Source: Escherichia coli (GTDB lineage: Bacteria; Pseudomonadota; Gammaproteobacteria; Enterobacterales; Enterobacteriaceae). Taken from it: a DNA stretch of 64,000 bases. Shown here in pieces: positions 15,681-55,368 of this stretch. The stretch is taken from the NCBI RefSeq assembly GCF_003334305.1, contig NZ_QOWS01000009.1; one strand, written 5' to 3'. The notes below the pieces were generated by a model, which worked only from the letters and a program-made list of their open reading frames with translations, did no database searches and was not told the DNA's origin. Each line of letters opens with the position of its first letter. Positions within the stretch are counted from its first letter, which is position 1. A program made the translations under genes and the position numbers.

Positions 15681-16316
15681 TCTTCTGAATCACCGGGCGA
15701 AAAAATATAACTGAGTTACAAATAAGTACCAGTCGAATGAGTATTGTATTAAGAATTTTTGAGTATCGCTGATACAACCAGAAAGCAATGCTAGCGCAAT
15801 ATTATAGGGCCAGCAATTGAGATTATTAGCAAAAGCATGTTAAGAATTAATTACCGAATTTATATATTAATTATAGTAAGGCAATGAGCTATTTTTGATA
15901 GTAAAAATAAAACAAGTTGATTTGATATATTAAATGAACAAATTAATCTTGATGGCAGTCTGATTATTGGTGAAGTTTATAGTCAGTTTTTTTCGCCAGC
16001 GGTTAAAGAAATAGAATAGTCGTATAAAAAAGGGTGTTCTGGGGCGAGTAAAACAACATCTTCACCTTAATGGCGATACAGTTGGCTGAGAGTCAGCAGG
16101 GGGGCAAATCACCTGCAAATAAACACGGCGCATACTGGCGTGAATATCGCGGATGCGTTCGAGGACAGAAGAACCGACAGGCGGATTCTTCAGCCGCTCA
16201 TCGTCCATCACAAAACCTTAGACCAGGTATTCCTGAAGCCGATTGAATATTGAGCAGTAGAAAATATCTGGATTGACAGTATTACAAGGGGTTGGAGAAC
16301 GTCAGGAGAGGCATTT

Positions 16317-16411
16317 TGGCGGAAGATCACAGGAGTCGAACCTGCCCGGGACCGCTGGCGGCCCCAACTGGATTTGAAGTCCAGCCGCCTCACCGGAGAC
16401 GACGATCTTCC
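16317..16411 (-). tRNA. selC: tRNA-Sec (selenocysteine tRNA, UCA anticodon)
   Basis: Reverse complement reads GGAAGATCGTCGTCTCCGGTGAGGCGGCTGGACTTCAAATCCAGTTGGGGCCGCCAGCGGTCCCGGGCAGGTTCGACTCCTGTGATCTTCCGCCA, a 95-nt match to E. coli selC with encoded CCA. Confidence 0.97.
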
Positions 16412-25175: not shown

Positions 25176-26042
25176 ATGAAAAAGCGTCGGAAGGAACCGG
25201 AAACGCTACGTGAACACTGTCGCCATATTTTTGGTGATGAGCCGCCAGTGCTCTGTGTATGGGAAACGGAATTTGATTACGCAGATGCCGAACTCAAGGC
25301 GCTGGCGGCTAAAGAGTGGCAGCAGATCAGCGTATGGGATTTGAGTGCTTACTATGTACTCAATCTCGTTTATAACGAACCGATGCAAATAGATTTGTTT
25401 CGCTATCTGTTTCCGCTCTGCCTGGCGCAATGGCATGAAACCGTTTTAGCTGGCGGTTATGGTGATCACTTCGAAGAATCCTTAATGAAGGCATTGTGTC
25501 GGCCCTATCTCTGGCAGGAGATGATGAATGCTTCCCAACGCCAGCAGGTACGGCAATTTTTACTGGACACCGCGTTGCAGCGTATGGATAACGAGCGTGG
25601 TTTCAATAACGTTCTTTGCTGGCTGGCGGTGTTCAATACTCTGGGTGGGGCCGCGCCGTTAATTCGTTCTCTCTGGTCGCGCTGGTGGGCGCTGGATACG
25701 CCAGGAAAAGCGGTGTGTGCTATTCAGTATGCCGCGCATCTAATTTATCCCATAGAAGCCAATCCGTTATGGTCGCAAGAATGGATAGGCTGGGGGCATC
25801 CATTAGGCCATAAAGATGGCTGGTCCTCTGATAATCGCGCTTTTCTTCGCCAAATGTTAACACCTGAAATGATTGTGGCTGGCGTACAGGCAGCGGCTGA
25901 AATTCTGCGTGGTGAACCGGAAGGCGCAATGGCGGCGCGAATTGCACAGGATGCGTATGAGGCAATGGATATCCTCACTATCCAGATTGAAGATTTACTG
26001 CGTGACTTGTCTTGTGATGAGTCTGGTCATGCGTTGGAGTAA
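25176..26042 (+). CDS. Uncharacterised Trp-rich cytoplasmic protein (hypothetical)
   Basis: 288-aa ORF with ATG 3 nt after gltS stop; no TM helix or signal peptide; 13 Trp; host-like codon usage; 3' end overlaps recG 3' end by 16 nt; no recognisable family. Confidence 0.6.
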   Translation: MKKRRKEPETLREHCRHIFGDEPPVLCVWETEFDYADAELKALAAKEWQQISVWDLSAYYVLNLVYNEPMQIDLFRYLFPLCLAQWHETVLAGGYGDHFEESLMKALCRPYLWQEMMNASQRQQVRQFLLDTALQRMDNERGFNNVLCWLAVFNTLGGAAPLIRSLWSRWWALDTPGKAVCAIQYAAHLIYPIEANPLWSQEWIGWGHPLGHKDGWSSDNRAFLRQMLTPEMIVAGVQAAAEILRGEPEGAMAARIAQDAYEAMDILTIQIEDLLRDLSCDESGHALE

Positions 26043-32033: not shown

Positions 32034-34444
<2,411 letters not shown>

Positions 34445-37552: not shown

Positions 37553-38194
37553 ATGAAACCATATCAGCGCCAGTTTATTGAATTTGCGCTTGGCAAGCAG
37601 GTGTTAAAGTTTGGCGAGTTTACGTTGAAGTCCGGGCGCAAAAGCCCCTATTTCTTCAACGCCGGGCTGTTTAATACCGGGCGCGATCTGGCACTGTTAG
37701 GCCGTTTTTACGCTGAAGCGTTGGTGGATTCCGGCCTTGAGTTCGATCTGCTGTTTGGCCCTGCTTACAAAGGGATCCCGATTGCCACCACTACCGCCGT
37801 GGCGCTGGCGGAGCATCATGACCTTGACCTGCCGTACTGCTTTAACCGCAAAGAGGCAAAAGACCACGGTGAAGGCGGCAATCTGGTTGGTAGCGCGTTA
37901 CAAGGACGCGTAATGCTGGTAGATGATGTGATCACCGCCGGAACGGCGATTCGCGAATCGATGGAGATTATTCAGGCTAATGGCGCGACGCTTGCTGGCG
38001 TGTTGATTTCGCTCGATCGTCAGGAACGGGGGCGCAGCGAGATTTCGGCGATTCAGGAAGTTGAGCGTGATTACAACTGCAAAGTGATCTCTATCATCAC
38101 CCTGAAAGACCTGATTGCTTACCTGGAAGAGAAGCCGGAAATGGCGGAACATCTGGCGGCGGTTAAGGCCTATCGCGAAGAGTTTGGCGTTTAA
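37553..38194 (+). CDS. pyrE: Orotate phosphoribosyltransferase
   Basis: 213 aa from internal ATG ([23 protein letters not shown]...) of ORF 37538..38194; PRPP motif [13 protein letters not shown]. Confidence 0.97.
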
Positions 38195-39392: not shown

Positions 39393-40590
39393 AACGGGTC
39401 ACGATCTCGTCGAGTAATAATTGGCCAAGGAGCTCTTTGCGCTCAAGCGGTAAGACTTTATCTCCGTCCTGCCAGAAAAGGTGTAATGCGTTGTTGTCGC
39501 TGTTAAATCCTTGAGTTGGCTGGGAAACATCGTTCGCGCAGATCAGATCAAGGTTTTTACGGATACGTTTTTGCCGGGCGTATTCTTCCACATTATTTGT
39601 TTCGGCGGCAAATCCAACGACGTAGGGTCGATGGTCTTTTAGTGCGGCAACGCCTGCGACGATATCGGGGTTTTTAACCATTTTTATTGTTAATTCATCA
39701 CCCTGCGTGGCCTGCTTTTTGATTTTCTCTGGGGCCACGGTAGCTGCGCGATAATCCGCCACGGCGGCGCAGCCGATAAAAATATTTTGCTGCTGTACAG
39801 AAGCATTCACGGCGGCTTCCATTTCCAGCGCGGTCATCACATCAACACGTTTAACAAACGGTGGCGTCGGTAGTGAAACCGGACCTGATACCAGCGTGAC
39901 GTTCGCGCCACGACGGGCAGCGGCGGCGGCGATAGCAAAACCCATCTTGCCGGAGCTGTGATTAGAGATATAACGCACGGGATCGAGCGGTTCACGCGTC
40001 GGGCCGGCGGTAATCATAATGTTCAGATGTTTCAGGTCGTTGACGGGCGAAAAATGCGCTACCGCCATATCCACAATGGTTAACGGATCGAGCATTCGCC
40101 CAGGACCGATATCACCACAAGCCTGACTGCCACTGTCTGGCCCCCAGATGAGCAAACCACGGGAAGCAAGCACCTCTAAATTATGCTGCGTGGCAGCGGC
40201 ACGGTACATCTGCTGGTTCATGGCGGGGAGCACGGCTACAGGCGCAGGTGTAGCCAGACAAATCGTCGATACCAGGTCATTCGCCATTCCGGCAGCAACA
40301 CGGGCAATCAAATCTGCCGTGGCAGGGGCGAGAATCACTAAATCAGCCCATTTACCCAGCTCAATATGGCCCATAGCGGCTTCGGCTGCCGGGTTCAGCA
40401 GACTGTCGGAAACGGGATAACCAGAAACCGCCTGCAAGCTAAGTGGGGTGATAAAGGCTTTTGCCGCTTCGGTCATGGCTACGCGGACGTCGGCCCCGCG
40501 ATCGCGCAAACGACGCACCAGTTCAGGGGTTTTATAGGCAGCAATACCGCCGCTAACGCCGAGAACGATTTTTTTACCGGCCAGGCTCAT
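39370..40590 (-). CDS. coaBC: Bifunctional phosphopantothenoylcysteine decarboxylase/synthetase
   Basis: 406 aa from internal ATG ([24 protein letters not shown]...) of ORF 39370..40662; 3' end overlaps dut start by 23 nt. Confidence 0.95.
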
Positions 40591-43016: not shown

Positions 43017-44781
<1,765 letters not shown>

Positions 44782-45094
44782 AGTAAATAGCTGACTTATG
44801 GATGTGCTGGGGATTCTATGTATTTAGCTGTGGCTTTACCATTACTTTTCCCGTTTTTGACTTAAATAGCAATTTACCCGCCAATTCTTGCTGAACATCT
44901 ATACTTTTTTTGTATTTTTATGCGATTCATTGATTTCTGCTGTACGTGCAGGAAGGAATCGCAGAGCAACAGTGAAAGAATATGGTTGCTAATGATTTTA
45001 TTTGATTGATTTCTTTATTGAAAATCAACAATGTGCTTAAAAATCATTCGGGTCGGATTGCCGCGAAAGAAGTGATACACTAGCGCGTCAATAT

Positions 45095-45144
45095 CAGTGC
45101 GGTATCAGTATTCAGGTAGCTGTTGAGCCTGGGGCGGTAGCGTG
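45095..45144 (+). promoter_or_regulatory. JUMPStart-like element containing the ops site (GGCGGTAGCGTG) in the waaQ leader
   Basis: TCAGGTAGCTGTTGAGCCTGGGGCGGTAGCGTG with ops at 45133..45144, about 50 nt upstream of the waaQ start. Confidence 0.75.
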
Positions 45145-45193
45145 CTTTTTCTGCTTCACCTTAATCGGATAATCTCAACAAAAAGAGTTACTT

Positions 45194-46252
45194 GTGGATA
45201 AGCCATTTCGAAGAATTTTGCTCATTAAGATGCGTTTTCATGGGGATATGTTATTAACTACTCCCGTCATTAGTTCGCTGAAAAAAAATTACCCTGACGC
45301 AAAAATCGATGTGCTGCTTTATCAGGACACCATCCCGATCCTGTCTGAAAATCCAGAGATTAACGCGCTCTACGGCATAAAAAATAAAAAAGCAAAAGCC
45401 TCAGAAAAAATTGCCAACTTTTTTCATCTCATCAAGGTATTACGTGCCAATAAGTATGACCTTATCGTCAATCTTACCGATCAATGGATGGTTGCTATAC
45501 TGGTTCGCTTATTAAATGCCCGTGTGAAAATTTCCCAGGATTATCATCATCGGCAGTCTGCTTTTTGGCGTAAAAGTTTCACCCATTTGGTGCCGTTGCA
45601 GGGTGGAAATGTGGTGGAAAGTAACTTATCCGTGCTGACACCATTGGGACTTGATTCGTTGGTGAAGCAGACAACCATGAGTTACCCGCCTGCAAGCTGG
45701 AAACGTATGCGTCGCGAACTTGATCACGCTGGTGTTGGACAAAATTATGTGGTTATCCAACCTACGGCGCGGCAAATCTTCAAATGCTGGGACAACGCCA
45801 AGTTTTCCGCTGTGATTGATGCCTTACATGCTCGTGGTTATGAAGTCGTTCTGACGTCCGGCCCAGATAAAGACGATCTGGCCTGCGTCAATGAAATTGC
45901 GCAGGGATGCCAGACGCCACCAGTAACGGCGCTGGCTGGAAAGGTGACCTTCCCGGAACTTGGTGCGTTAATCGATCATGCGCAGCTGTTTATTGGCGTT
46001 GATTCCGCACCGGCGCATATTGCCGCTGCAGTTAATACGCCGCTGATATCGCTGTTTGGTGCGACAGACCATATTTTCTGGCGTCCCTGGTCAAATAACA
46101 TGATTCAATTCTGGGCGGGAGATTACCGGGAAATGCCAACGCGCGATCAGCGTGACCGAAATGAGATGTATCTTTCGGTTATTCCGGCGGCAGATGTCAT
46201 TGCTGCTGTCGATAAATTACTGCCCTCCTCCACGACAGGTACGTCGTTATGA
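45194..46252 (+). CDS. waaQ: LPS heptosyltransferase III WaaQ
   Basis: 352 aa from GTG; GT9; conserved N-terminal RRILLIKMRFHGD requires a start upstream of the first ATG. Confidence 0.88.
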   Translation: MDKPFRRILLIKMRFHGDMLLTTPVISSLKKNYPDAKIDVLLYQDTIPILSENPEINALYGIKNKKAKASEKIANFFHLIKVLRANKYDLIVNLTDQWMVAILVRLLNARVKISQDYHHRQSAFWRKSFTHLVPLQGGNVVESNLSVLTPLGLDSLVKQTTMSYPPASWKRMRRELDHAGVGQNYVVIQPTARQIFKCWDNAKFSAVIDALHARGYEVVLTSGPDKDDLACVNEIAQGCQTPPVTALAGKVTFPELGALIDHAQLFIGVDSAPAHIAAAVNTPLISLFGATDHIFWRPWSNNMIQFWAGDYREMPTRDQRDRNEMYLSVIPAADVIAAVDKLLPSSTTGTSL

Positions 46253-47373
46253 TCGTTGCTTTTTGTTTATATAAATATTTTCCCTTTGGCGGTTTGCAGC
46301 GTGATTTTATGCGTATTGCTCAGACAGTCGCCGCCCGAGGTCATCATGTTCGGGTTTATACCCAGTCGTGGGAAGGCGAATGCCCTGATGTATTTGAACT
46401 GATCAAAGTGCCGGTTAAATCGCATACCAATCACGGGCGCAATGCGGAGTATTTTGCCTGGGTGCAAAAACATTTACGCGAACATCCCGTCGATAAAGTC
46501 GTTGGATTCAACAAAATGCCGGGGCTGGACGTTTATTATGCCGCTGATGTTTGTTATGCCGAGAAAGTAGCGCAGGAAAAAGGCTTTTTCTATCGCCTGA
46601 CGTCACGTTATCGCCATTATGCCGCCTTTGAGCGGGCAACCTTCGAACAGGGCAAGCCGACACAGCTGCTGATGCTGACAGATAAGCAAATCGCCGATTT
46701 CCAGAAACATTATCAGACTGAAGCGGAGCGTTTTCATATTCTGCCACCGGGGATTTATCCTGATCGTAAATATAGCCAGCAGCCAGCCAATAGCCGTGAA
46801 ATCTTCCGTAAGAAGAATGGAATAACCGAACAACAATATTTATTGTTGCAGGTCGGTTCAGACTTCACGCGTAAAGGTGTCGATCGTTCCATTGAAGCAC
46901 TTGCTTCGTTACCGGATTCGCTGCGCCACAACACATTGCTATATGTTGTTGGGCAGGATAAACCGCGAAAATTTGAGGCGCTGGCAGAAAAACGCGGTGT
47001 GCGCAGTAATGTTCACTTTTTCTCGGGGCGCAATGATGTCTCGGAATTAATGGCGGCGGCGGATTTATTACTGCATCCTGCCTACCAGGAAGCGGCGGGA
47101 ATTGTGCTGCTGGAAGCGATTACTGCAGGATTACCGGTACTAACAACTGCCGTTTGTGGCTATGCGCATTATATTGTCGACGCTAATTGCGGCGAGGCTA
47201 TTGCTGAGCCATTCCGCCAGGAAACATTGAATGAGATTTTACGCAAAGCGTTAACGCAATCTTCATTGCGCCAGGCCTGGGCGGAAAATGCGCGACATTA
47301 TGCTGATACACAAGATTTATACAGTCTGCCAGAGAAAGCGGCGGATATCATAACGGGTGGTCTGGATGGTTGA
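46249..47373 (+). CDS. waaG: LPS glucosyltransferase I WaaG (GT4)
   Basis: 374 aa; start overlaps waaQ stop by 4 nt. Confidence 0.95.
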
Positions 47374-48163
47374 ACTTAAAGAGCCGTTTGCCACGTTATG
47401 GCGCGGCAAAGATCCTTTTGAGGAAGTTAAAACCTTGCAGGGTGAGGTATTTCGTGAACTGGAAACTCGCCGTACTCTGCGCTTTGAAATGGCGGGCAAA
47501 AGCTATTTTCTCAAATGGCATCGCGGCACGACCCTGAAAGAGATAATCAAAAATTTACTCTCATTGCGGATGCCAGTATTAGGCGCTGACCGCGAATGGA
47601 ATGCGATTCATCGACTGCGGGATGTCGGCGTTGATACTATGTATGGGGTGGTATTTGGCGAAAAAGGCATGAATCCGCTGACCAGAACTTCATTTATTAT
47701 TACCGAAGATCTGACACCAACCATAAGTCTGGAAGATTACTGTGCTGACTGGGCGACTACCCCTCCAGATGTTCGCGTAAAGCGTATGCTTATTAAGCGT
47801 GTCGCGACGATGGTGCGCGATATGCATGCTGCGGGCATTAACCACCGTGACTGTTATATCTGTCATTTCCTGCTGCACTTGCCTTTTTCCGGTAAGGAAG
47901 AGGAGTTAAAAATTTCGGTAATTGACCTGCACCGGGCGCAGCTTCGCACGCGCGTTCCACGTCGTTGGCGGGATAAAGATCTTATTGGGCTTTATTTTTC
48001 TTCGATGAATATCGGCCTGACTCAGCGGGATATCTGGCGGTTTATGAAAGTGTATTTTGCCGCCCCGCTTAAAGACATTCTCAAGCAGGAACAAGGACTG
48101 CTGTCGCAAGCAGAAGCAAAAGCCACAAAAATCAGGGAAAGAACGATTCGAAAATCGTTGTAA
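47366..48163 (+). CDS. waaP: LPS core heptose I kinase WaaP
   Basis: 265 aa from ATG overlapping waaG 3' end by 8 nt ([21 protein letters not shown]...). Confidence 0.93.
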
Positions 48164-48178
48164 TTTCCGGAGAGAAAT

Positions 48179-49195
48179 ATGAGTGCCCACTATTTTAATC
48201 CACAAGAGATGATCAATAAGACAATCATCTTCGATGAAAGGCCAGCGGCGTCAGTGGCATCATCATTCCATGTTGCTTATGGCATTGATAAAAACTTTCT
48301 TTTTGGTTGTGGTGTTTCAATCACGTCAGTTTTGTTACATAACAACGACGTGAGTTTTGTTTTCCACGTTTTTATTGATGATATCCCTGAAGCCGATATC
48401 CAGCGTTTAGCCCAATTGGCGAAAAGCTATCGTACCTGTATCCAGATCCATCTAGTAAATTGTGAACGGCTTAAGGCATTACCGACGACCAAAAATTGGT
48501 CTATTGCCATGTATTTCCGTTTTGTAATTGCAGATTACTTTATTGATCAACAAGATAAGATCCTTTACCTGGATGCTGATATCGCCTGTCAGGGAAACTT
48601 AAAGCCGCTGATAACAATGGATCTTGCCAATAACGTTGCTGCTGTTGTTACTGAACGCGATGCTAACTGGTGGTCGTTACGGGGTCAAAGTCTGCAGTGT
48701 AATGAACTTGAAAAGGGTTACTTTAATTCAGGTGTCCTGTTAATTAATACACTAGCGTGGGCGCAGGAGTCCGTTTCTGCTAAAGCGATGTCGATGCTTG
48801 CTGATAAAGCCATCGTTTCCCGTTTAACCTATATGGATCAAGATATCCTTAATCTTATCCTGTTAGGGAAAGTTAAATTCATTGATGCTAAATACAATAC
48901 GCAATTTAGTTTAAATTATGAATTAAAAAAATCATTTGTTTGTCCAATTAATGATGAAACCGTATTAATTCATTATGTCGGCCCGACAAAACCCTGGCAT
49001 TACTGGGCCGGTTATCCAAGTGCGCAACCTTTTATCAAAGCCAAAGAAGCATCGCCCTGGAAAAATGAACCGTTAATGCGGCCAGTTAACTCAAACTATG
49101 CTCGTTATTGCGCCAAGCATAATTTTAAACAAAACAAACCAATTAACGGGATAATGAATTATATTTATTATTTTTATTTAAAGATAATAAAATGA
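48179..49195 (+). CDS. waaO: GT8 LPS alpha-1,3-glucosyltransferase (WaaO/WaaI type)
   Basis: 338 aa; DxD motif LYLDADIACQG and HYVGPTKPW motif; first gene after waaP; AT-rich. Confidence 0.8.
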   Translation: MSAHYFNPQEMINKTIIFDERPAASVASSFHVAYGIDKNFLFGCGVSITSVLLHNNDVSFVFHVFIDDIPEADIQRLAQLAKSYRTCIQIHLVNCERLKALPTTKNWSIAMYFRFVIADYFIDQQDKILYLDADIACQGNLKPLITMDLANNVAAVVTERDANWWSLRGQSLQCNELEKGYFNSGVLLINTLAWAQESVSAKAMSMLADKAIVSRLTYMDQDILNLILLGKVKFIDAKYNTQFSLNYELKKSFVCPINDETVLIHYVGPTKPWHYWAGYPSAQPFIKAKEASPWKNEPLMRPVNSNYARYCAKHNFKQNKPINGIMNYIYYFYLKIIK

Positions 49196-49211
49196 AATTG
49201 AGAAAAGTTAA

Positions 49212-50207
49212 ATGAATGAATTTATAAAAGAACGGTTTTCGTATTTAGCAGATAATAAAAAAGAAAACGCCCCAGAGCTAAATGTTTCCTACGGTATCGA
49301 TAAGAATTTTTTGTATGGTGCTGGCGTTTCAATTTCTTCCGTTTTGATTAATAATTCAGATATTAATTTTGTCTTTCATGTTTTCACTGATTATGTGGAT
49401 GATGATTATTTAAAGTCATTTAATGAAACAGCAAAACAATTTAATACCTCAATTATTGTATATTTAATTGACCCCAAATACTTTGCTGATCTGCCGACGT
49501 CACAGTTTTGGTCGTACGCGACATACTTCAGGGTATTGTCTTTTGAATATCTGAGTGAAAGTATTTCCACACTGCTGTATCTGGATGCCGATGTTGTTTG
49601 TAAAGGAAGCCTGAAACCTCTCACAGAAATTATATTTAAAGATGAGTTTGCTGCGGTCATTCCTGACAATGATAGTACTCAGGCGGCATGTGCAAAACGC
49701 CTCAACATTCCCGAAATGAATGGACGTTATTTCAATGCAGGCGTTATCTATGTCAATCTTAAAAAATGGCATGAAGCAAATTTGACACCGTATTTACTCA
49801 AACTTTTACGAGGGGAAACTAAATATGGCTCTCTTAAATATTTAGATCAGGATGCGTTGAATATCGCATTTAATATGAATAATATCTACCTTGCGAAGAA
49901 TTTTGATACTATTTATACCCTGAAAAACGAACTTTATGATCGTAGTCATCGAAAGTATCAGCAAACCATTACCGATAAAACAGTGTTGATTCACTATACA
50001 GGGATAACTAAACCATGGCATAGCTGGGCTGGATATCCGTCTGCATCATACTTTAATATCGCGCGTGAACAATCTCCCTGGAAGAAATATCCTCTTAAAG
50101 AGGCGCGGACTGTTGCAGAAATGCAGAAACAATATAAGCATCTGTTTGCCCATGGTGAGTATATAAAAGGCATAACTTCATTAATTAAGTACAAGCTTAA
50201 GAAATAA
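49212..50207 (+). CDS. waaT: GT8 LPS alpha-1,2-glycosyltransferase (WaaT-like, R1 outer core)
   Basis: 331 aa; LYLDADVVCKG and HYTGITKPW; name assigned from R1 gene order, not from a search. Confidence 0.65.
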   Translation: MNEFIKERFSYLADNKKENAPELNVSYGIDKNFLYGAGVSISSVLINNSDINFVFHVFTDYVDDDYLKSFNETAKQFNTSIIVYLIDPKYFADLPTSQFWSYATYFRVLSFEYLSESISTLLYLDADVVCKGSLKPLTEIIFKDEFAAVIPDNDSTQAACAKRLNIPEMNGRYFNAGVIYVNLKKWHEANLTPYLLKLLRGETKYGSLKYLDQDALNIAFNMNNIYLAKNFDTIYTLKNELYDRSHRKYQQTITDKTVLIHYTGITKPWHSWAGYPSASYFNIAREQSPWKKYPLKEARTVAEMQKQYKHLFAHGEYIKGITSLIKYKLKK

Positions 50208-50216
50208 ATTACTCTT

Positions 50217-50909
50217 ATGATTACAAGTATACGTTATCGCGGCTTCTCATTTTATTACAAAGATAATGATAATAAATATAAAGAAATCTTTGATGAAATA
50301 CTGGCCTATAATTTTAAAACAGTAAAAGTATTACGTAATATTGATGATACCAAAGTATCATTGATTGATACGAAATATGGTCGCTATGTTTTTAAAGTCT
50401 TTGCCCCGAAAACGAAAAGGAATGAACGTTTTTTAAAATCTTTTGTAAAAGGTGACTACTATCAGAATTTGATCGTTGAAACCGATCGTGTCAGAAGTGC
50501 AGGTCTTACTTTTCCTAATGATTTTTATTTTCTGGCTGAGCGTAAAATTTTCAACTATGCCAGTGTTTTTATTATGCTTATCGAGTATGTCGAGGGCGTA
50601 GAGCTCAATGATATGCCGATTATTCCAGAAAATGTTAAAGCAGAAATTAAGGCTTCAATGGAAAAATTGCATGCCTTAAATATGCTATCGGGCGACCCAC
50701 ACCGGGGTAATTTTATCGTTAGTAAAGATGGTGTCAGGATAATTGACCTATCCGGTAAAAGCTGTACGGCAGAGCGTAAAGCTCGTGATCGTCTGGCCAT
50801 GGAACGTCACCTGGGTATTGCCAACGAAATAAAAGATTATGGCTACTATTCAGTAATCTACAGAACCAAACTACGCAAATTTATTAAAAAATTAAAAGGC
50901 AAAGCGTAA
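50217..50909 (+). CDS. waaY: LPS core heptose II kinase WaaY
   Basis: 230-aa small kinase-like protein between GT8 genes; matches WaaY family. Confidence 0.82.
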   Translation: MITSIRYRGFSFYYKDNDNKYKEIFDEILAYNFKTVKVLRNIDDTKVSLIDTKYGRYVFKVFAPKTKRNERFLKSFVKGDYYQNLIVETDRVRSAGLTFPNDFYFLAERKIFNYASVFIMLIEYVEGVELNDMPIIPENVKAEIKASMEKLHALNMLSGDPHRGNFIVSKDGVRIIDLSGKSCTAERKARDRLAMERHLGIANEIKDYGYYSVIYRTKLRKFIKKLKGKA

Positions 50910-50934
50910 ACCACACAGTCAAAACGGAACCAAC

Positions 50935-51960
50935 ATGGATTTATTAGCTGAGAGTATTACTGAAGTCGCTGTCTCTGGGGAAATTGCTAACACCGATCGT
51001 GTGTTAAATATCGCTTACGGTATTGACCGTAACTTTTTATTTGGTGCGGCAGTATCTATGCAATCAGTTGTTATGCATAACCCGGACCTTGCGGTTAAGT
51101 TTCATCTCTTTACCGACTACATTGATGAAGATTATCTACAACGTGTTAATGCTTTTACCAGCAAAAATGCTAACGTTGAAGTAATAATTTATAAAGTCTC
51201 CAATGCCTTTATTGATATCTTCCCCAGCCTGAAACAGTGGTCTTATGCAACATTCTTCCGTTTAGTTGCGTTCCAGTATTTGAGTGAAACTATTGAAAAT
51301 CTGTTATATATCGATGCTGATGTCATCTGTAAAGGCTCATTAGCTGGATTGCTTGATATTAATTTTGATGAGGATAAGTTCGCAGCTGTTATTAAAGATG
51401 TGCCTTTTATGCAGGAAAAACCAGCGAAGCGTCTGGCTATAGAGGGACTTCCAGGGAATTATTTCAACGCCGGTGTAGTATATCTGCAGCTTGAAGCATG
51501 GGCGAAAAATGATTTTATGAATAAAGCCATTGCTATGCTGGCAAGTGACCCGCAGCACACGAAGTATAAATGCCTTGATCAGGATATTTTAAATATTCTG
51601 TTCTTTGGTCATTGTATTTTTATTAGCGGCGATTATGATTGCTTTTATGGCATTGACTATGAGTTAAAAAATAAAAGCGATGAAGATTATAAAAAGACCA
51701 TTACCGATGATACTAAGCTGATTCATTATGTTGGCGTAACGAAGCCCTGGAACGACTGGACGAATTATCCCTGCCAGAAGTATTTTAATGAGGCTTATCA
51801 GGCTTCTTGCTGGAATGATGTGGCGTTTATTCCAGCCACGAATGAAAAGCAGTATCAAGTGAAATATCAACATGCAAAGAAAAATGGTGATACGTTTAAC
51901 GCTTTTATTTACTTCATTAAATTTAAATTAAATAAGTATAAAAGAAAACTATTTGGATAA
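50935..51960 (+). CDS. waaW: GT8 LPS alpha-1,2-glycosyltransferase (WaaW-like, R1 outer core)
   Basis: 341 aa; LYIDADVICKG and HYVGVTKPW; position after waaY. Confidence 0.65.
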   Translation: MDLLAESITEVAVSGEIANTDRVLNIAYGIDRNFLFGAAVSMQSVVMHNPDLAVKFHLFTDYIDEDYLQRVNAFTSKNANVEVIIYKVSNAFIDIFPSLKQWSYATFFRLVAFQYLSETIENLLYIDADVICKGSLAGLLDINFDEDKFAAVIKDVPFMQEKPAKRLAIEGLPGNYFNAGVVYLQLEAWAKNDFMNKAIAMLASDPQHTKYKCLDQDILNILFFGHCIFISGDYDCFYGIDYELKNKSDEDYKKTITDDTKLIHYVGVTKPWNDWTNYPCQKYFNEAYQASCWNDVAFIPATNEKQYQVKYQHAKKNGDTFNAFIYFIKFKLNKYKRKLFG

Positions 51961-52044
51961 TAATAAAAATCATGGATGTCTGAGTTACAATAATAATTAA
52001 GGATGAGTACTATCATATTTTATTAGTTCAGGCAAGAGAACACG

Positions 52045-53028
52045 ATGAGCAATGATTACCCTTTAGTATCCATAATAATACCGACGTATAATTCATCTGA
52101 TTACATTACTGAAACTCTAACGAAATTAGAAAAACAAACTTACCCAAATTTTGAAATTGTTATTGTTAATGATGGTTCTAAAGATAACACATCAAACGTT
52201 TTGAGAGAGTATGGGTTAACCCACTCTCGATTAATTATTATCAATAAAGAAAATGGCGGTGTTTCGTCTGCCAGGAATACAGGTATCCGCAAGGCGCAAG
52301 GACAGTTTATATGTTTTATGGATGATGATGATGAGATAGATCCTAACTATCTGCTGAAGATGTATACCAGACAACATGAGACGGGAGGGGATGCGATTTA
52401 TTGTGGGCTTTATGGCCATTATATAAAAGATGGTGTTACTTACTCACCTATAAATACAGAGTTTAATGAAGGATCTTTACTTTTCGACTTTTTTTATAAA
52501 AAGGTTAGATTCCATATAGGGTGCTTGTTTATAAGAAAACAACTTCTGGAAGAGAATAATCTTTTTTTTGATGAAGATTTACGACTAGGAGAAGATCTTG
52601 ATTTTATCTATCGACTGCTAATTACATGCGATATGTATGCGGTTCCATATTATATGTATAAGCATAACTATAGAGAAAATTCCTTAATGAACTCATGTAG
52701 AACCATCACTCATTATCGACATGAGTCATTTGCGCACGAAAGAATCTACTCTTCTGTGATGCAGTTATACAAAGGTAACCGGAAAGAAGAAATTCATACA
52801 TTATTGAGTCAAAATAGAGCTTATCATAAAACTCGTTATTTATGGAATGTTCTACTTAATGGTGATTTTAAACTATTGAATCAATTAGTTGAAAACAATG
52901 ATAAAGAATTAAGAGATTGTAATCTTCCTGGCAAGAGAGATAAGAGACGAGCAAAAATATTAGCATCAAAAAATTATATTCTCTGGAGGATGGTAAGACT
53001 GGTAAATAGAAAAAAGAATAAACGTTAG
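52045..53028 (+). CDS. waaV: GT2 beta-glycosyltransferase (WaaV-like, R1 outer core)
   Basis: 327 aa; N-terminal GT2 signature VSIIIPTYNSSDYITETL..EIVIVNDGSKD; GT2 rather than GT25 argues R1 rather than R4. Confidence 0.65.
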   Translation: MSNDYPLVSIIIPTYNSSDYITETLTKLEKQTYPNFEIVIVNDGSKDNTSNVLREYGLTHSRLIIINKENGGVSSARNTGIRKAQGQFICFMDDDDEIDPNYLLKMYTRQHETGGDAIYCGLYGHYIKDGVTYSPINTEFNEGSLLFDFFYKKVRFHIGCLFIRKQLLEENNLFFDEDLRLGEDLDFIYRLLITCDMYAVPYYMYKHNYRENSLMNSCRTITHYRHESFAHERIYSSVMQLYKGNRKEEIHTLLSQNRAYHKTRYLWNVLLNGDFKLLNQLVENNDKELRDCNLPGKRDKRRAKILASKNYILWRMVRLVNRKKNKR

Positions 53029-53073
53029 ATCTTGCATTAAATAACCCATCCTCGTAGCATAGGTTGAAACTAT

Positions 53074-54327
53074 ATGTCGTTTTGTTGGAATGAAATTAAT
53101 TCTGGTATAAAGTCTTTAATTCTCATATTATGTATTTTTTCTTTAATGACTTTGTCTTTATGGGATGATGTTGCAACAAAGTTTCTTCATGCAGCTGGAA
53201 TTATATCTGCATTGTATTTTCTTGCGACACCAAAAAAAACAATAACTAATAATCCTACTTTGTTAATTTTCATCTCATTATGTCTTTTGGGTATCGTAAA
53301 TATCATCTGGTATTCACATTATAAAGTTTCAGGCTCTGTTTATACCAATGCATATCGTGGCCCAATGGAAACTGGAAAAATTGCCTTGTGTAGCGCTTTT
53401 ATTTTCTTAGTTCTTTTTGCTAAAAATGAGATGAGAACAAAAATAAAATTTGGGAAACTAATTCTGTTCGCATCCCTGGCAACGCAGTTACTTTTTTTTG
53501 CGCATGCCATGTGGCAACATTTCTATTTAAACGTCGACCGTGTTGCATTATCAGCTTCCCACGCTACAACAGCAGGCTACATCATCCTTTTTCCTTCTTT
53601 ACTGGCATCAATTCTCATTTTAAAATCCGACTTTAGACATAAAACAACATTATATACAATTAACTTCATGCTTAGCTTATGTGCTGTCATAGTAACTGAG
53701 ACGCGTGCAGCCATATTAGTGTTTCCATTCTTTGCGTTAATATTAATCGTAATGGATAGTTATATTAATAAGCGAATTAATTATAAGTTATATTGTTTTA
53801 TTACGATTGCATTATTAGCAGGTGTATTTTCTTTTAAAGATACATTGCTTATGAGAATGAATGACTTAAATAACGATTTAGTTAATTATTCGCATGATAA
53901 CACCAGAACTTCAGTCGGTGCCCGTCTGGCAATGTATGAAGTTGGCTTAAAAACATATTCTCCAATAGGACAATCACTGGAAAAACGTGCGGAAAAAATA
54001 CATGAACTAGAAGAAAAAGAGCCTAGATTGAGTGGCGCTTTACCCTATGTAGATTCTCATTTGCATAACGATCTCATAGATACGTTATCAACGCGTGGTA
54101 TTCCTGGAGTTGTATTAACAATTTTAGCATTTTCAGCAATACTCATATATGCCTTAAGAACTGCTAAAGAACCTTATATTTTAATCTTGCTTTTTTCACT
54201 ACTGGTAGTAGGACTAAGTGATGTAATACTCTTTTCTAAACCGGTTCCGACTGCTGTGTTTATCACCATAATATTGCTTTGTGCTTATTTTAAAGCACAA
54301 TCGGACCAATGTTTATTAGAGAAGTAA
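53074..54327 (+). CDS. waaL: O-antigen ligase WaaL
   Basis: 417-aa polytopic protein; Wzy_C-type motifs TETRAAILVFP and GARLAMYEVGL shared with K-12 WaaL; last gene of the plus-strand operon. Confidence 0.85.
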   Translation: MSFCWNEINSGIKSLILILCIFSLMTLSLWDDVATKFLHAAGIISALYFLATPKKTITNNPTLLIFISLCLLGIVNIIWYSHYKVSGSVYTNAYRGPMETGKIALCSAFIFLVLFAKNEMRTKIKFGKLILFASLATQLLFFAHAMWQHFYLNVDRVALSASHATTAGYIILFPSLLASILILKSDFRHKTTLYTINFMLSLCAVIVTETRAAILVFPFFALILIVMDSYINKRINYKLYCFITIALLAGVFSFKDTLLMRMNDLNNDLVNYSHDNTRTSVGARLAMYEVGLKTYSPIGQSLEKRAEKIHELEEKEPRLSGALPYVDSHLHNDLIDTLSTRGIPGVVLTILAFSAILIYALRTAKEPYILILLFSLLVVGLSDVILFSKPVPTAVFITIILLCAYFKAQSDQCLLEK

Positions 54328-54341
54328 TGAATATGTGAAAT

Positions 54342-54370
54342 AAAATCAGCAAGGAAGCTGATTTTATTTC
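54342..54370. terminator. Bidirectional hairpin between convergent waaL and waaC
   Basis: AAAATCAGC-aaggaa-GCTGATTTT followed by a T-rich run. Confidence 0.6.
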
Positions 54371-54396
54371 AAAATTATCTATTAAAGAGTTGTAAT

Positions 54397-55368
54397 TTAA
54401 ATCATGGCAGCGTTTTCTTCAATGAACCGCTTAACAGCATTTGCTGTCAATTGAGACAACTCATTCCCCGGAGCCCTACAAACCATCTGATTCTTCCCAT
54501 ACCCACCAATTAATCCCGGATCGGTTGGTCCATAAACCGTGATATTGGGTCTATCCAGTGCCGCCGTTAAATGGCTTAACCCCGTATCCACCGACACTAC
54601 AAATTTAGCCCCGGCCAGCACGCGGGCAACGCCTTCCAGACTCATCTTCGGCAATACTTCAACATAAGCAAATCCTTCCGCCAGTCGTTTCGCCCGTTCT
54701 TCCTCATGCGGCGCGCCCCACGGAAGTTTAATCCGTATTCCTGAATCAGCCAGTAAACCAATCAATTCTCGCCAGTGTTCTTCCGGCCAGTGTTTATCAT
54801 CACGGGTCGTCGCATGAAGAAATACGGCATATTCGCCAGCATCTGTAGGCAGGTTCGTCAGAAAATGCTGTGCGATAGCATAATCGCCCTGGGTTTGCGG
54901 TTTGCTATAGCCCAAACTTTTGGCAAACAGTTCGCGGGTGCGTTCTACGGCGTGCTGCTGTTTTGCAATATGATGCTTACGATTGTAAAACAGGCTGGCT
55001 AAAGGTTCGCGAGCGGTTTGCCAGTCCATGCCATGCTTTACGCCATGCGCCAGACGCGTCACCAGCGCCGCGCTTTTTACCAGCCCCTGAGCGTCGATAA
55101 CTGCGTCATAGTTCTCTGCTTGTAGCGCTTCACGAAACGCTTTGCGTTCAGCTTTTATAGGGGCCGAGAACCAGGCTTTACGCCAGCGACGTATTGCCAC
55201 AGGAATAACTCGCTCAACGGCAGCGTGCCAGGAAGGAATCTGTGCGAACCCTTCTTCCACCACCCAGTCAAACTTAATTTCTGGGATTGCCTGCTGGGCA
55301 TCAGTGAGTGCGGGCAACGTATGGAGAACATCGCCCATCGACGATGTTTTAACGATCAAAACCCGCAT
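54397..55368 (-). CDS. waaC: LPS heptosyltransferase I WaaC
   Basis: 323 aa, GT9, MRVLIVKTSSMGDVLHTLPALTDA... Confidence 0.95.
   Translation of the reverse strand: MRVLIVKTSSMGDVLHTLPALTDAQQAIPEIKFDWVVEEGFAQIPSWHAAVERVIPVAIRRWRKAWFSAPIKAERKAFREALQAENYDAVIDAQGLVKSAALVTRLAHGVKHGMDWQTAREPLASLFYNRKHHIAKQQHAVERTRELFAKSLGYSKPQTQGDYAIAQHFLTNLPTDAGEYAVFLHATTRDDKHWPEEHWRELIGLLADSGIRIKLPWGAPHEEERAKRLAEGFAYVEVLPKMSLEGVARVLAGAKFVVSVDTGLSHLTAALDRPNITVYGPTDPGLIGGYGKNQMVCRAPGNELSQLTANAVKRFIEENAAMI

Follow-up and report, generated by a model that had tools for sequence, protein, structure and literature searches.

Control of the LPS-core operon by RfaH through the JUMPstart/ops element has been textbook knowledge since the 1990s. 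The question raised by the waaA/waaQ locus in the Escherichia coli DNA analysed here (a stretch of 64,000 nucleotides, referred to as the window) is whether the leader of waaQ carries such a site, serving the genes up to waaL, or whether the motif found there acts in another way or not at all. We conclude that it is very probably a JUMPstart/ops recruitment site for RfaH, in the leader of the R1-type LPS-core operon waaQGPOTYWVL (Table 1). This reading draws on the ops and JUMPstart sequences, their position and conservation, the K-12 rirA gene, the presence of rfaH, the AT-rich distal genes and ChIP data from strain CFT073; we found nothing that contradicts it.

Table 1. Features of the waaQ leader, the downstream operon and the additional ops cores (positions in the window)
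Feature	Position	Strand	Basis or remark
Extended -10, TGaTACACT, of the putative waaQ/RirA promoter	45073-45081	+	homology to K-12 and conservation
RirA homolog, 73 nt (K-12 b4760)	45088-45160	+	first base is the putative waaQ mRNA start
Candidate extended RNA hairpin	45096-45146	+	predicted; AGUGCG-UAUC (45096-45106) would pair with ops RNA
JUMPstart, 39 nt	45106-45144	+	Rfam RF01707, model 1-38 of 38 (full length)
JUMPstart hairpin, stem CAGGT/GCCTG, 9-nt loop	45113-45117 with 45127-45131	+	structure line of the Rfam alignment
ops element	45133-45144	+	exact GGCGGTAGCGTG, 12/12; non-template, i.e. sense, strand of waaQ
U-tract after ops	45146-45156	+	
Shine-Dalgarno-like AAGAG, weak	45183-45187	+	6 nt before GTG; read from the sequence
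waaQ (rfaQ), heptosyltransferase III, GTG start	45194-46252	+	NCBIfam NF007742, 714 bits (cut-off 467); RefSeq
waaG	46249-47373	+	RefSeq annotation
waaP	47366-48163	+	RefSeq; RfaP NF011703, 478 bits (cut-off 170)
waaO	48179-49195	+	RefSeq; above NCBIfam cut-off
GT8 paralog (waaT)	49212-50207	+	RefSeq/NCBIfam
waaY (rfaY)	50217-50909	+	RfaY above NCBIfam cut-off
alpha-1,2-galactosyltransferase (waaW)	50935-51960	+	RefSeq/NCBIfam
GT2 (waaV)	52045-53028	+	RefSeq/NCBIfam
waaL, O-antigen ligase, last gene of the unit	53074-54327	+	RefSeq 'O-antigen ligase family protein'
15-bp perfect palindromic hairpin	54336-54371		69-bp gap between convergent waaL and waaC
GGCGGTAG core	34232-34239	+	inside coding region
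GGCGGTAG core	37791-37798	-	inside coding region
GGCGGTAG core	40059-40066	-	inside coding region

Even with one mismatch allowed, GGCGGTAGCGTG has no other match in the window, where an exact 12-mer is expected in about 0.008 copies by chance (both strands of 64 kb, assuming uniform composition). A whole-window Rfam scan returned two matches above the curated thresholds, among them RF01707 (JUMPstart), whose 55.2 bits exceed the gathering score of 35 (E 6.4e-10). A permissive Rfam scan of the waaA/waaQ spacer yielded, besides JUMPstart, only a miRNA model whose E of 0.49 is not credible. An exact ops combined with a full-length JUMPstart match is far beyond chance, and the observation is therefore real. 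The element lies on the waaQ-sense strand in the untranslated leader, within the spacer upstream of an LPS operon, and the ops site is covered by no open reading frame. The preliminary description, which had reported an exact ops in a JUMPstart-like block about 50 nt before the waaQ GTG, in a 412-bp divergent intergenic region, was accurate on these points: there are 49 nt between the end of ops and the GTG, and the spacer (44782-45193) runs for 412 bp between the waaA start at 44781 on the - strand and the waaQ GTG at 45194 on the + strand. The block had been drawn as 45095-45144, which reads CAGTGCGGTATCAGTATTCAGGTAGCTGTTGAGCCTGGGGCGGTAGCGTG on the + strand. Its end coincides with that of ops, but its start needs amending, as the canonical JUMPstart begins at 45106; positions 45095-45105 (CAGTGCGGTAT) lie outside it, yet they are conserved in waaQ leaders.

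The JUMPstart hairpin could be assessed by covariation in 85 distinct elements from many genera, a set separate from the alignment of 19 waaQ leaders described below. Only the second pair of the stem was informative, since it alone is free on both sides while the remaining pairs are fixed by the search pattern. This pair is standard in 81 of the 85 elements and occurs as four pair types (U-A 59, A-U 12, G-U 7 and G-C 3, with 4 unpaired), in agreement with the Rfam structure. As single-stranded DNA, ops itself can form the small hairpin expected of it, although this fold is weak (-0.9 kcal/mol). We take the ops pause position to be T45143 (U11).

The element is conserved within the species and beyond it. 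When a 56-nt query covering it was searched against 5426 complete E. coli genomes, the JUMPstart block was found in 5425 of them, once in each and with an identity of at least 95%. A cross-species scan, in which one exact pattern was searched in contigs from one genome per species, returned at least 120 JUMPstart loci across Enterobacterales. Among the matches listed, at least 23 loci from other species or genera adjoin WaaQ, WaaA or both, with 39-66 nt between ops and the WaaQ start, and 97 of the 120 are not waaQ leaders. In the 19 waaQ leaders that were aligned, ops, the GGG that precedes it and the stem are invariant. In four loci of the scan (L021, L050, L108 and L113), a perfect enterobacterial-type JUMPstart sits on a short contig assigned to Arthrobacter, an Erysipelotrichia MAG, a Peptococcaceae MAG or Bacillus, where enterobacterial DNA was most likely introduced by contamination or mis-binning.

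The JUMPstarts of O-antigen (rfb), capsule, colanic acid and other polysaccharide clusters and of plasmids (RF01707) have the same 39-nt architecture as the waaQ element, that is, a 5' CAGYG block, a 5-bp stem and then GGGGCGGTAGCGTG; the plasmids bearing related copies are enterobacterial. The waaQ version is distinguished by an A-U at stem pair 2, where U-A is common, by its 9-nt loop, by an AGTGCG-TAT block upstream and by the U-tract that follows. Most other JUMPstart copies lack both this block and the U-tract.

The waaQ transcription start can be placed at about T45088 by homology, the position being transferred from the 5' end of K-12 rirA. The extended -10 precedes this position by 6 nt, and either TGnTACACT or TACAAT/TATAAT is kept at this place in the waaQ leaders of Escherichia, Citrobacter, Silvania, Pluralibacter, Cedecea, Shimwellia and Kosakonia. 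A generic sigma-70 -35/-10 scan of the spacer returned two 9/12 matches, not above shuffles, and did not report the extended -10; these matches were set aside as being at shuffle level and as missing the homology-supported extended -10. With a start at 45088, ops would occupy positions +46 to +57 of the transcript; its location in the leader, downstream of the promoter, is thus predicted by homology rather than by direct mapping.

The K-12 MG1655 leader keeps the -10 region, the start position, JUMPstart, ops and the U-tract, between the same divergent pair of genes, with 49 consecutive identical bases over JUMPstart. By contrast, part of the mid-spacer is a different, poorly alignable allele. 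The spacer is mosaic in this respect (44871-45031): the waaA-proximal 89 bp, an island at about 44895-44932 and the part running from about 45032 through JUMPstart are near-identical to K-12, and the stretches in between are almost unalignable to it. The K-12-like spacer allele is present in about 935 of the 5426 genomes, at 60-80% overall identity. As to its operon, K-12 has the K-12 core type, with another distal gene set and waaL in the opposite operon.

At the translation start, the weak AAGAG is conserved in the alignment of waaQ leaders. K-12 waaQ is annotated from an ATG located 12 codons downstream of the GTG (the 12 codons span 45194-45229 in the window). The GTG is favoured, because these codons vary mostly at their third positions across genera and the NCBIfam RfaQ model is aligned from residue 1. 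The waaQ and rfb operons have been described as devoid of a canonical ribosome-binding site (PMC6358824).

Downstream of the leader, nine + strand genes, waaQ-G-P-O-T-Y-W-V-L, occupy 9.1 kb (45194-54327) and either overlap or are separated by gaps of at most 84 nt. The names waaT, waaW and waaV and the core type, R1, are taken from the known R1 core locus. For waaL, no NCBIfam match was obtained at 1e-10. The order is that of an R1-type locus laid out as in CFT073, with waaL inside the waaQ unit and convergent on rfaC-rfaF-rfaD (waaC-waaF-hldD), which follow on the - strand. This 9.8-kb arrangement, counted at 80% coverage or more, is found in 1826 of the 5426 genomes. The G+C content is about 48-50% over waaQ-G-P, 31-39% from 48000 to 54500 (the outer-core genes and waaL) and about 50% in the flanking genes. 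The low values are compatible with horizontal acquisition of the type-specific core region, and the AT-rich distal operon is the usual kind of H-NS/Rho substrate.

The arms of the palindrome between waaL and waaC are TGAAATAAAATCAGC and GCTGATTTTATTTCA; each ends in TTTATTTCA, and the 3' arm is T-rich in both directions. It is likely a bidirectional terminator, an assignment made from its position since the region contains 9 terminator-like sites against 10.9 in shuffles. A scan for terminators inside the operon likewise revealed no excess over shuffles. Promoter-like matches within the 9-kb operon (33, with 30.2 expected) are at chance level, so that internal promoters may exist. The co-oriented, tightly packed genes behind a sense-strand ops nevertheless bear out the view that an RfaH-controlled unit of about 9 kb would run from waaQ through waaL, as the preliminary description had predicted.

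Direct data are available for a close relative of this locus. At rfaQ/waaQ, CFT073 (R1 core) matches the window in its nine genes and their order, with 98.0% identity over 9619 bp (about 9.6 kb) and no gaps. The coding part contains 193 substitutions and the 412-bp spacer 4 differences, all upstream of 45052; consequently, the -10, JUMPstart, ops and the rest of the leader up to the waaQ start are identical. The strain backgrounds differ: positions 1-58600 of the window are 100.000% identical to E. coli A7 (NZ_CP028767.1), a commensal isolate from an orangutan. The rfaH gene lies outside the window and is encoded at 103778-104266 in the identical genome A7.

In CFT073, ChIP-seq detected an RfaH signal across the rfa unit, downstream of a single leader ops, RfaH staying on RNA polymerase; sigma-70 ChIP peaks fall at the start sites predicted upstream of ops, and the unit is coated by H-NS/StpA (PMC9765446). 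The RfaH-dependent traveling ratio is in the range <=0.1-0.34, a joint figure for wzx, kps and rfa (PMC9765446). These data argue against a transcription start downstream of 45144, against unchanged distal levels in a delta-rfaH mutant and against dispensability of ops G5/T6 (45137-45138 here) (PMC9765446). The two checks proposed in the preliminary description, start-site mapping and polarity in an rfaH mutant, therefore have published counterparts, both favourable: the common 5' end of K-12 RirA and waaQ aligns to 45088, upstream of ops (PMC8745692, PMC5736990), and in CFT073 delta-rfaH the occupancy of RNA polymerase on the rfa operon drops to near background as the operon end is approached (PMC9765446). 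By analogy, we infer that the present strain behaves like CFT073, whose leader is identical.

The following sequence of events can be proposed. Transcription would start at about 45088 from the extended -10 promoter and, 45-56 nt on, RNA polymerase would transcribe ops and pause at its 11th base. The exposed non-template GGCGGTAGCGTG would fold into a small hairpin read by RfaH, a NusG paralog, which would then open, clamp the polymerase in place of NusG and stay bound through the whole unit. Bound RfaH would suppress pausing and Rho-dependent termination, as well as the roadblocks that H-NS/StpA form in the AT-rich distal genes, and its refolded C-terminal domain would recruit the ribosome, via S10, to the poorly signalled GTG 49 nt downstream; the weak AAGAG and GTG signals fit such a recruitment. 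The distal genes would thereby be expressed up to waaL, 9 kb away. The leader itself, in the form of a short free RNA (the RirA homolog), could bind RfaH and damp the system. The ops pause, non-template recognition, the RfaH fold switch, exclusion of NusG and Rho and S10-mediated ribosome recruitment have been reviewed (PMC6358824, PMC8745692). The preliminary description had correctly read the site as one for RfaH; it left unmentioned the RirA encoded by the same leader and the current view that RfaH counters H-NS/StpA at this site in addition to Rho-dependent polarity.

Could the leader act chiefly at the RNA level instead, as a 73-nt, ops-containing RirA that titrates or inactivates RfaH and so exerts negative feedback, rather than mainly as a loading site? 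In K-12 MG1655, rirA (b4760, ncRNA) is annotated at the homologous place, between waaQ and waaA. The corresponding segment of the window (45088-45160, against NC_000913.3 3808166-3808238) is about 92% identical, with about 5 mismatches and 1 indel in 73 nt; it contains ops, and its 5' end would be the waaQ start site. RefSeq does not annotate this homolog in the present genome. Reviews describe K-12 RirA as a 73-nt RNA that holds ops and JUMPstart and has its 5' end in common with the waaQ mRNA (PMC5736990, PMC8745692). A discrete, RfaH-binding transcript of about 73 nt is described in reviews for K-12 only (PMC5736990, PMC6358824), and the phenotypes they attribute to RirA come from its overexpression in K-12. 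However, a role for RirA is compatible with one at the DNA level, its phenotypes are those of overexpression, and both RfaH recruitment via non-template ops DNA and RfaH-dependent progression of the polymerase on rfa have been shown directly (PMC9765446). That the RNA is the main product of the site is thus conceivable but doubtful.

Another possibility is that the hairpin formed between the ops RNA and 45096-45106, together with the following UUUUUCUGCUU, constitutes an attenuator, at which an unmodified polymerase would stop, yielding RirA, and through which an RfaH-modified polymerase would read. This hairpin is the minimum-energy fold of 45088-45160, which consists of one long imperfect hairpin with the JUMPstart stem at its tip, followed by UUUUUCUGCUU (-19.3 kcal/mol). 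Across the 19 waaQ leaders, 91% of the cells pair, against 28-54% in slid controls, a count biased upward since the leaders are related to one another and one of them supplied the structure. Changes on one side only, G-U to A-U in 7 leaders and A-U to G-U in 4, leave the invariant ops paired. Among the matches listed, the mean number of ops bases paired with the 5' flank is 9.7 in waaQ leaders and 6.0 in other JUMPstarts, and 18 of 24 waaQ leaders, as opposed to 23 of 95 other JUMPstarts, have a U-tract after ops. On the other hand, the fold energy of 45088-45160 is no better than that of shuffles (z = -0.46), and that of the whole leader is likewise indistinguishable from them; a consensus terminator scan of the leader found none; the annotated 3' end of RirA (+73) is located about 14 nt past the stem, whereas intrinsic termination usually occurs nearer; and the Pectobacterium and Kosakonia leaders have no U-tract. 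As the fold energies are at shuffle level, the attenuator stays a minority reading, and an improbable one. In its full form, in which 45096-45106, the ops RNA and the U-tract would make up an RfaH-overridable attenuator and an unloaded polymerase would end a few bases later, releasing a RirA that titrates RfaH, we judge it equally unlikely. If true, it would amount to a self-contained feedback loop and would explain the 5' part of the waaQ-type JUMPstart by a function at the RNA level.

Finally, that the ops match is a chance or relic sequence, functionless in this strain, is almost certainly wrong: what speaks for it, three further 8-nt ops cores in coding regions of the window, concerns sites of a kind that do not bind RfaH (PMC9765446), and it is effectively refuted by the conservation of the element in all but one of the E. 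coli genomes surveyed and, at a constant distance from waaQ, in other genera, and by the published binding of RfaH to the identical CFT073 leader (PMC9765446), in addition to the 12/12 ops inside a 39-nt JUMPstart (E 6e-10).

The 8-nt core GGCGGTAG occurs 4 times in the window, with 1.3 expected. Of the three extra copies, one is antisense to yicG, one is antisense to pyrE, and one reads in the sense direction of coaBC (GGCGGTAGCGCA). They were rejected as RfaH sites, being in coding regions, two of them antisense, and none having the full 12-mer; they are probably inert, since ops cores in coding regions do not bind RfaH (PMC9765446).

Two other observations concern the neighbourhood. A 288-aa open reading frame (25176-26042, + strand) begins 2 bp downstream of gltS and overlaps, by its 3' end, the 3' end of the convergent recG. 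It corresponds to the RefSeq hypothetical protein WP_000747336.1, had no Pfam, NCBIfam or PADLOC match and is present in only 1911 of the 5426 complete E. coli genomes, which makes it an accessory gene. Elsewhere, according to the RefSeq annotation of the identical genome, a short fragment of a rhuM pseudogene (about 16077-16238) comes after selC (tRNA-Sec, 16321-16411, - strand; Rfam, 83.8 bits); it is probably what remains of an island that had inserted at the selC hot spot.

A JUMPstart/ops site recruiting RfaH to the waaQ leader is the best reading of this locus. The element itself is already known; what is added here is the annotation of a RirA homolog and of a start site in this genome. 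The value of the annotation is that it marks the putative beginning of the waaQ transcription unit and flags the RirA homolog. RfaH recruitment at this site would account for the expression of the AT-rich, H-NS-prone distal core genes and of the O-antigen ligase gene, and the RfaH-dependent completion of LPS bears on virulence, serum resistance and phage receptors.
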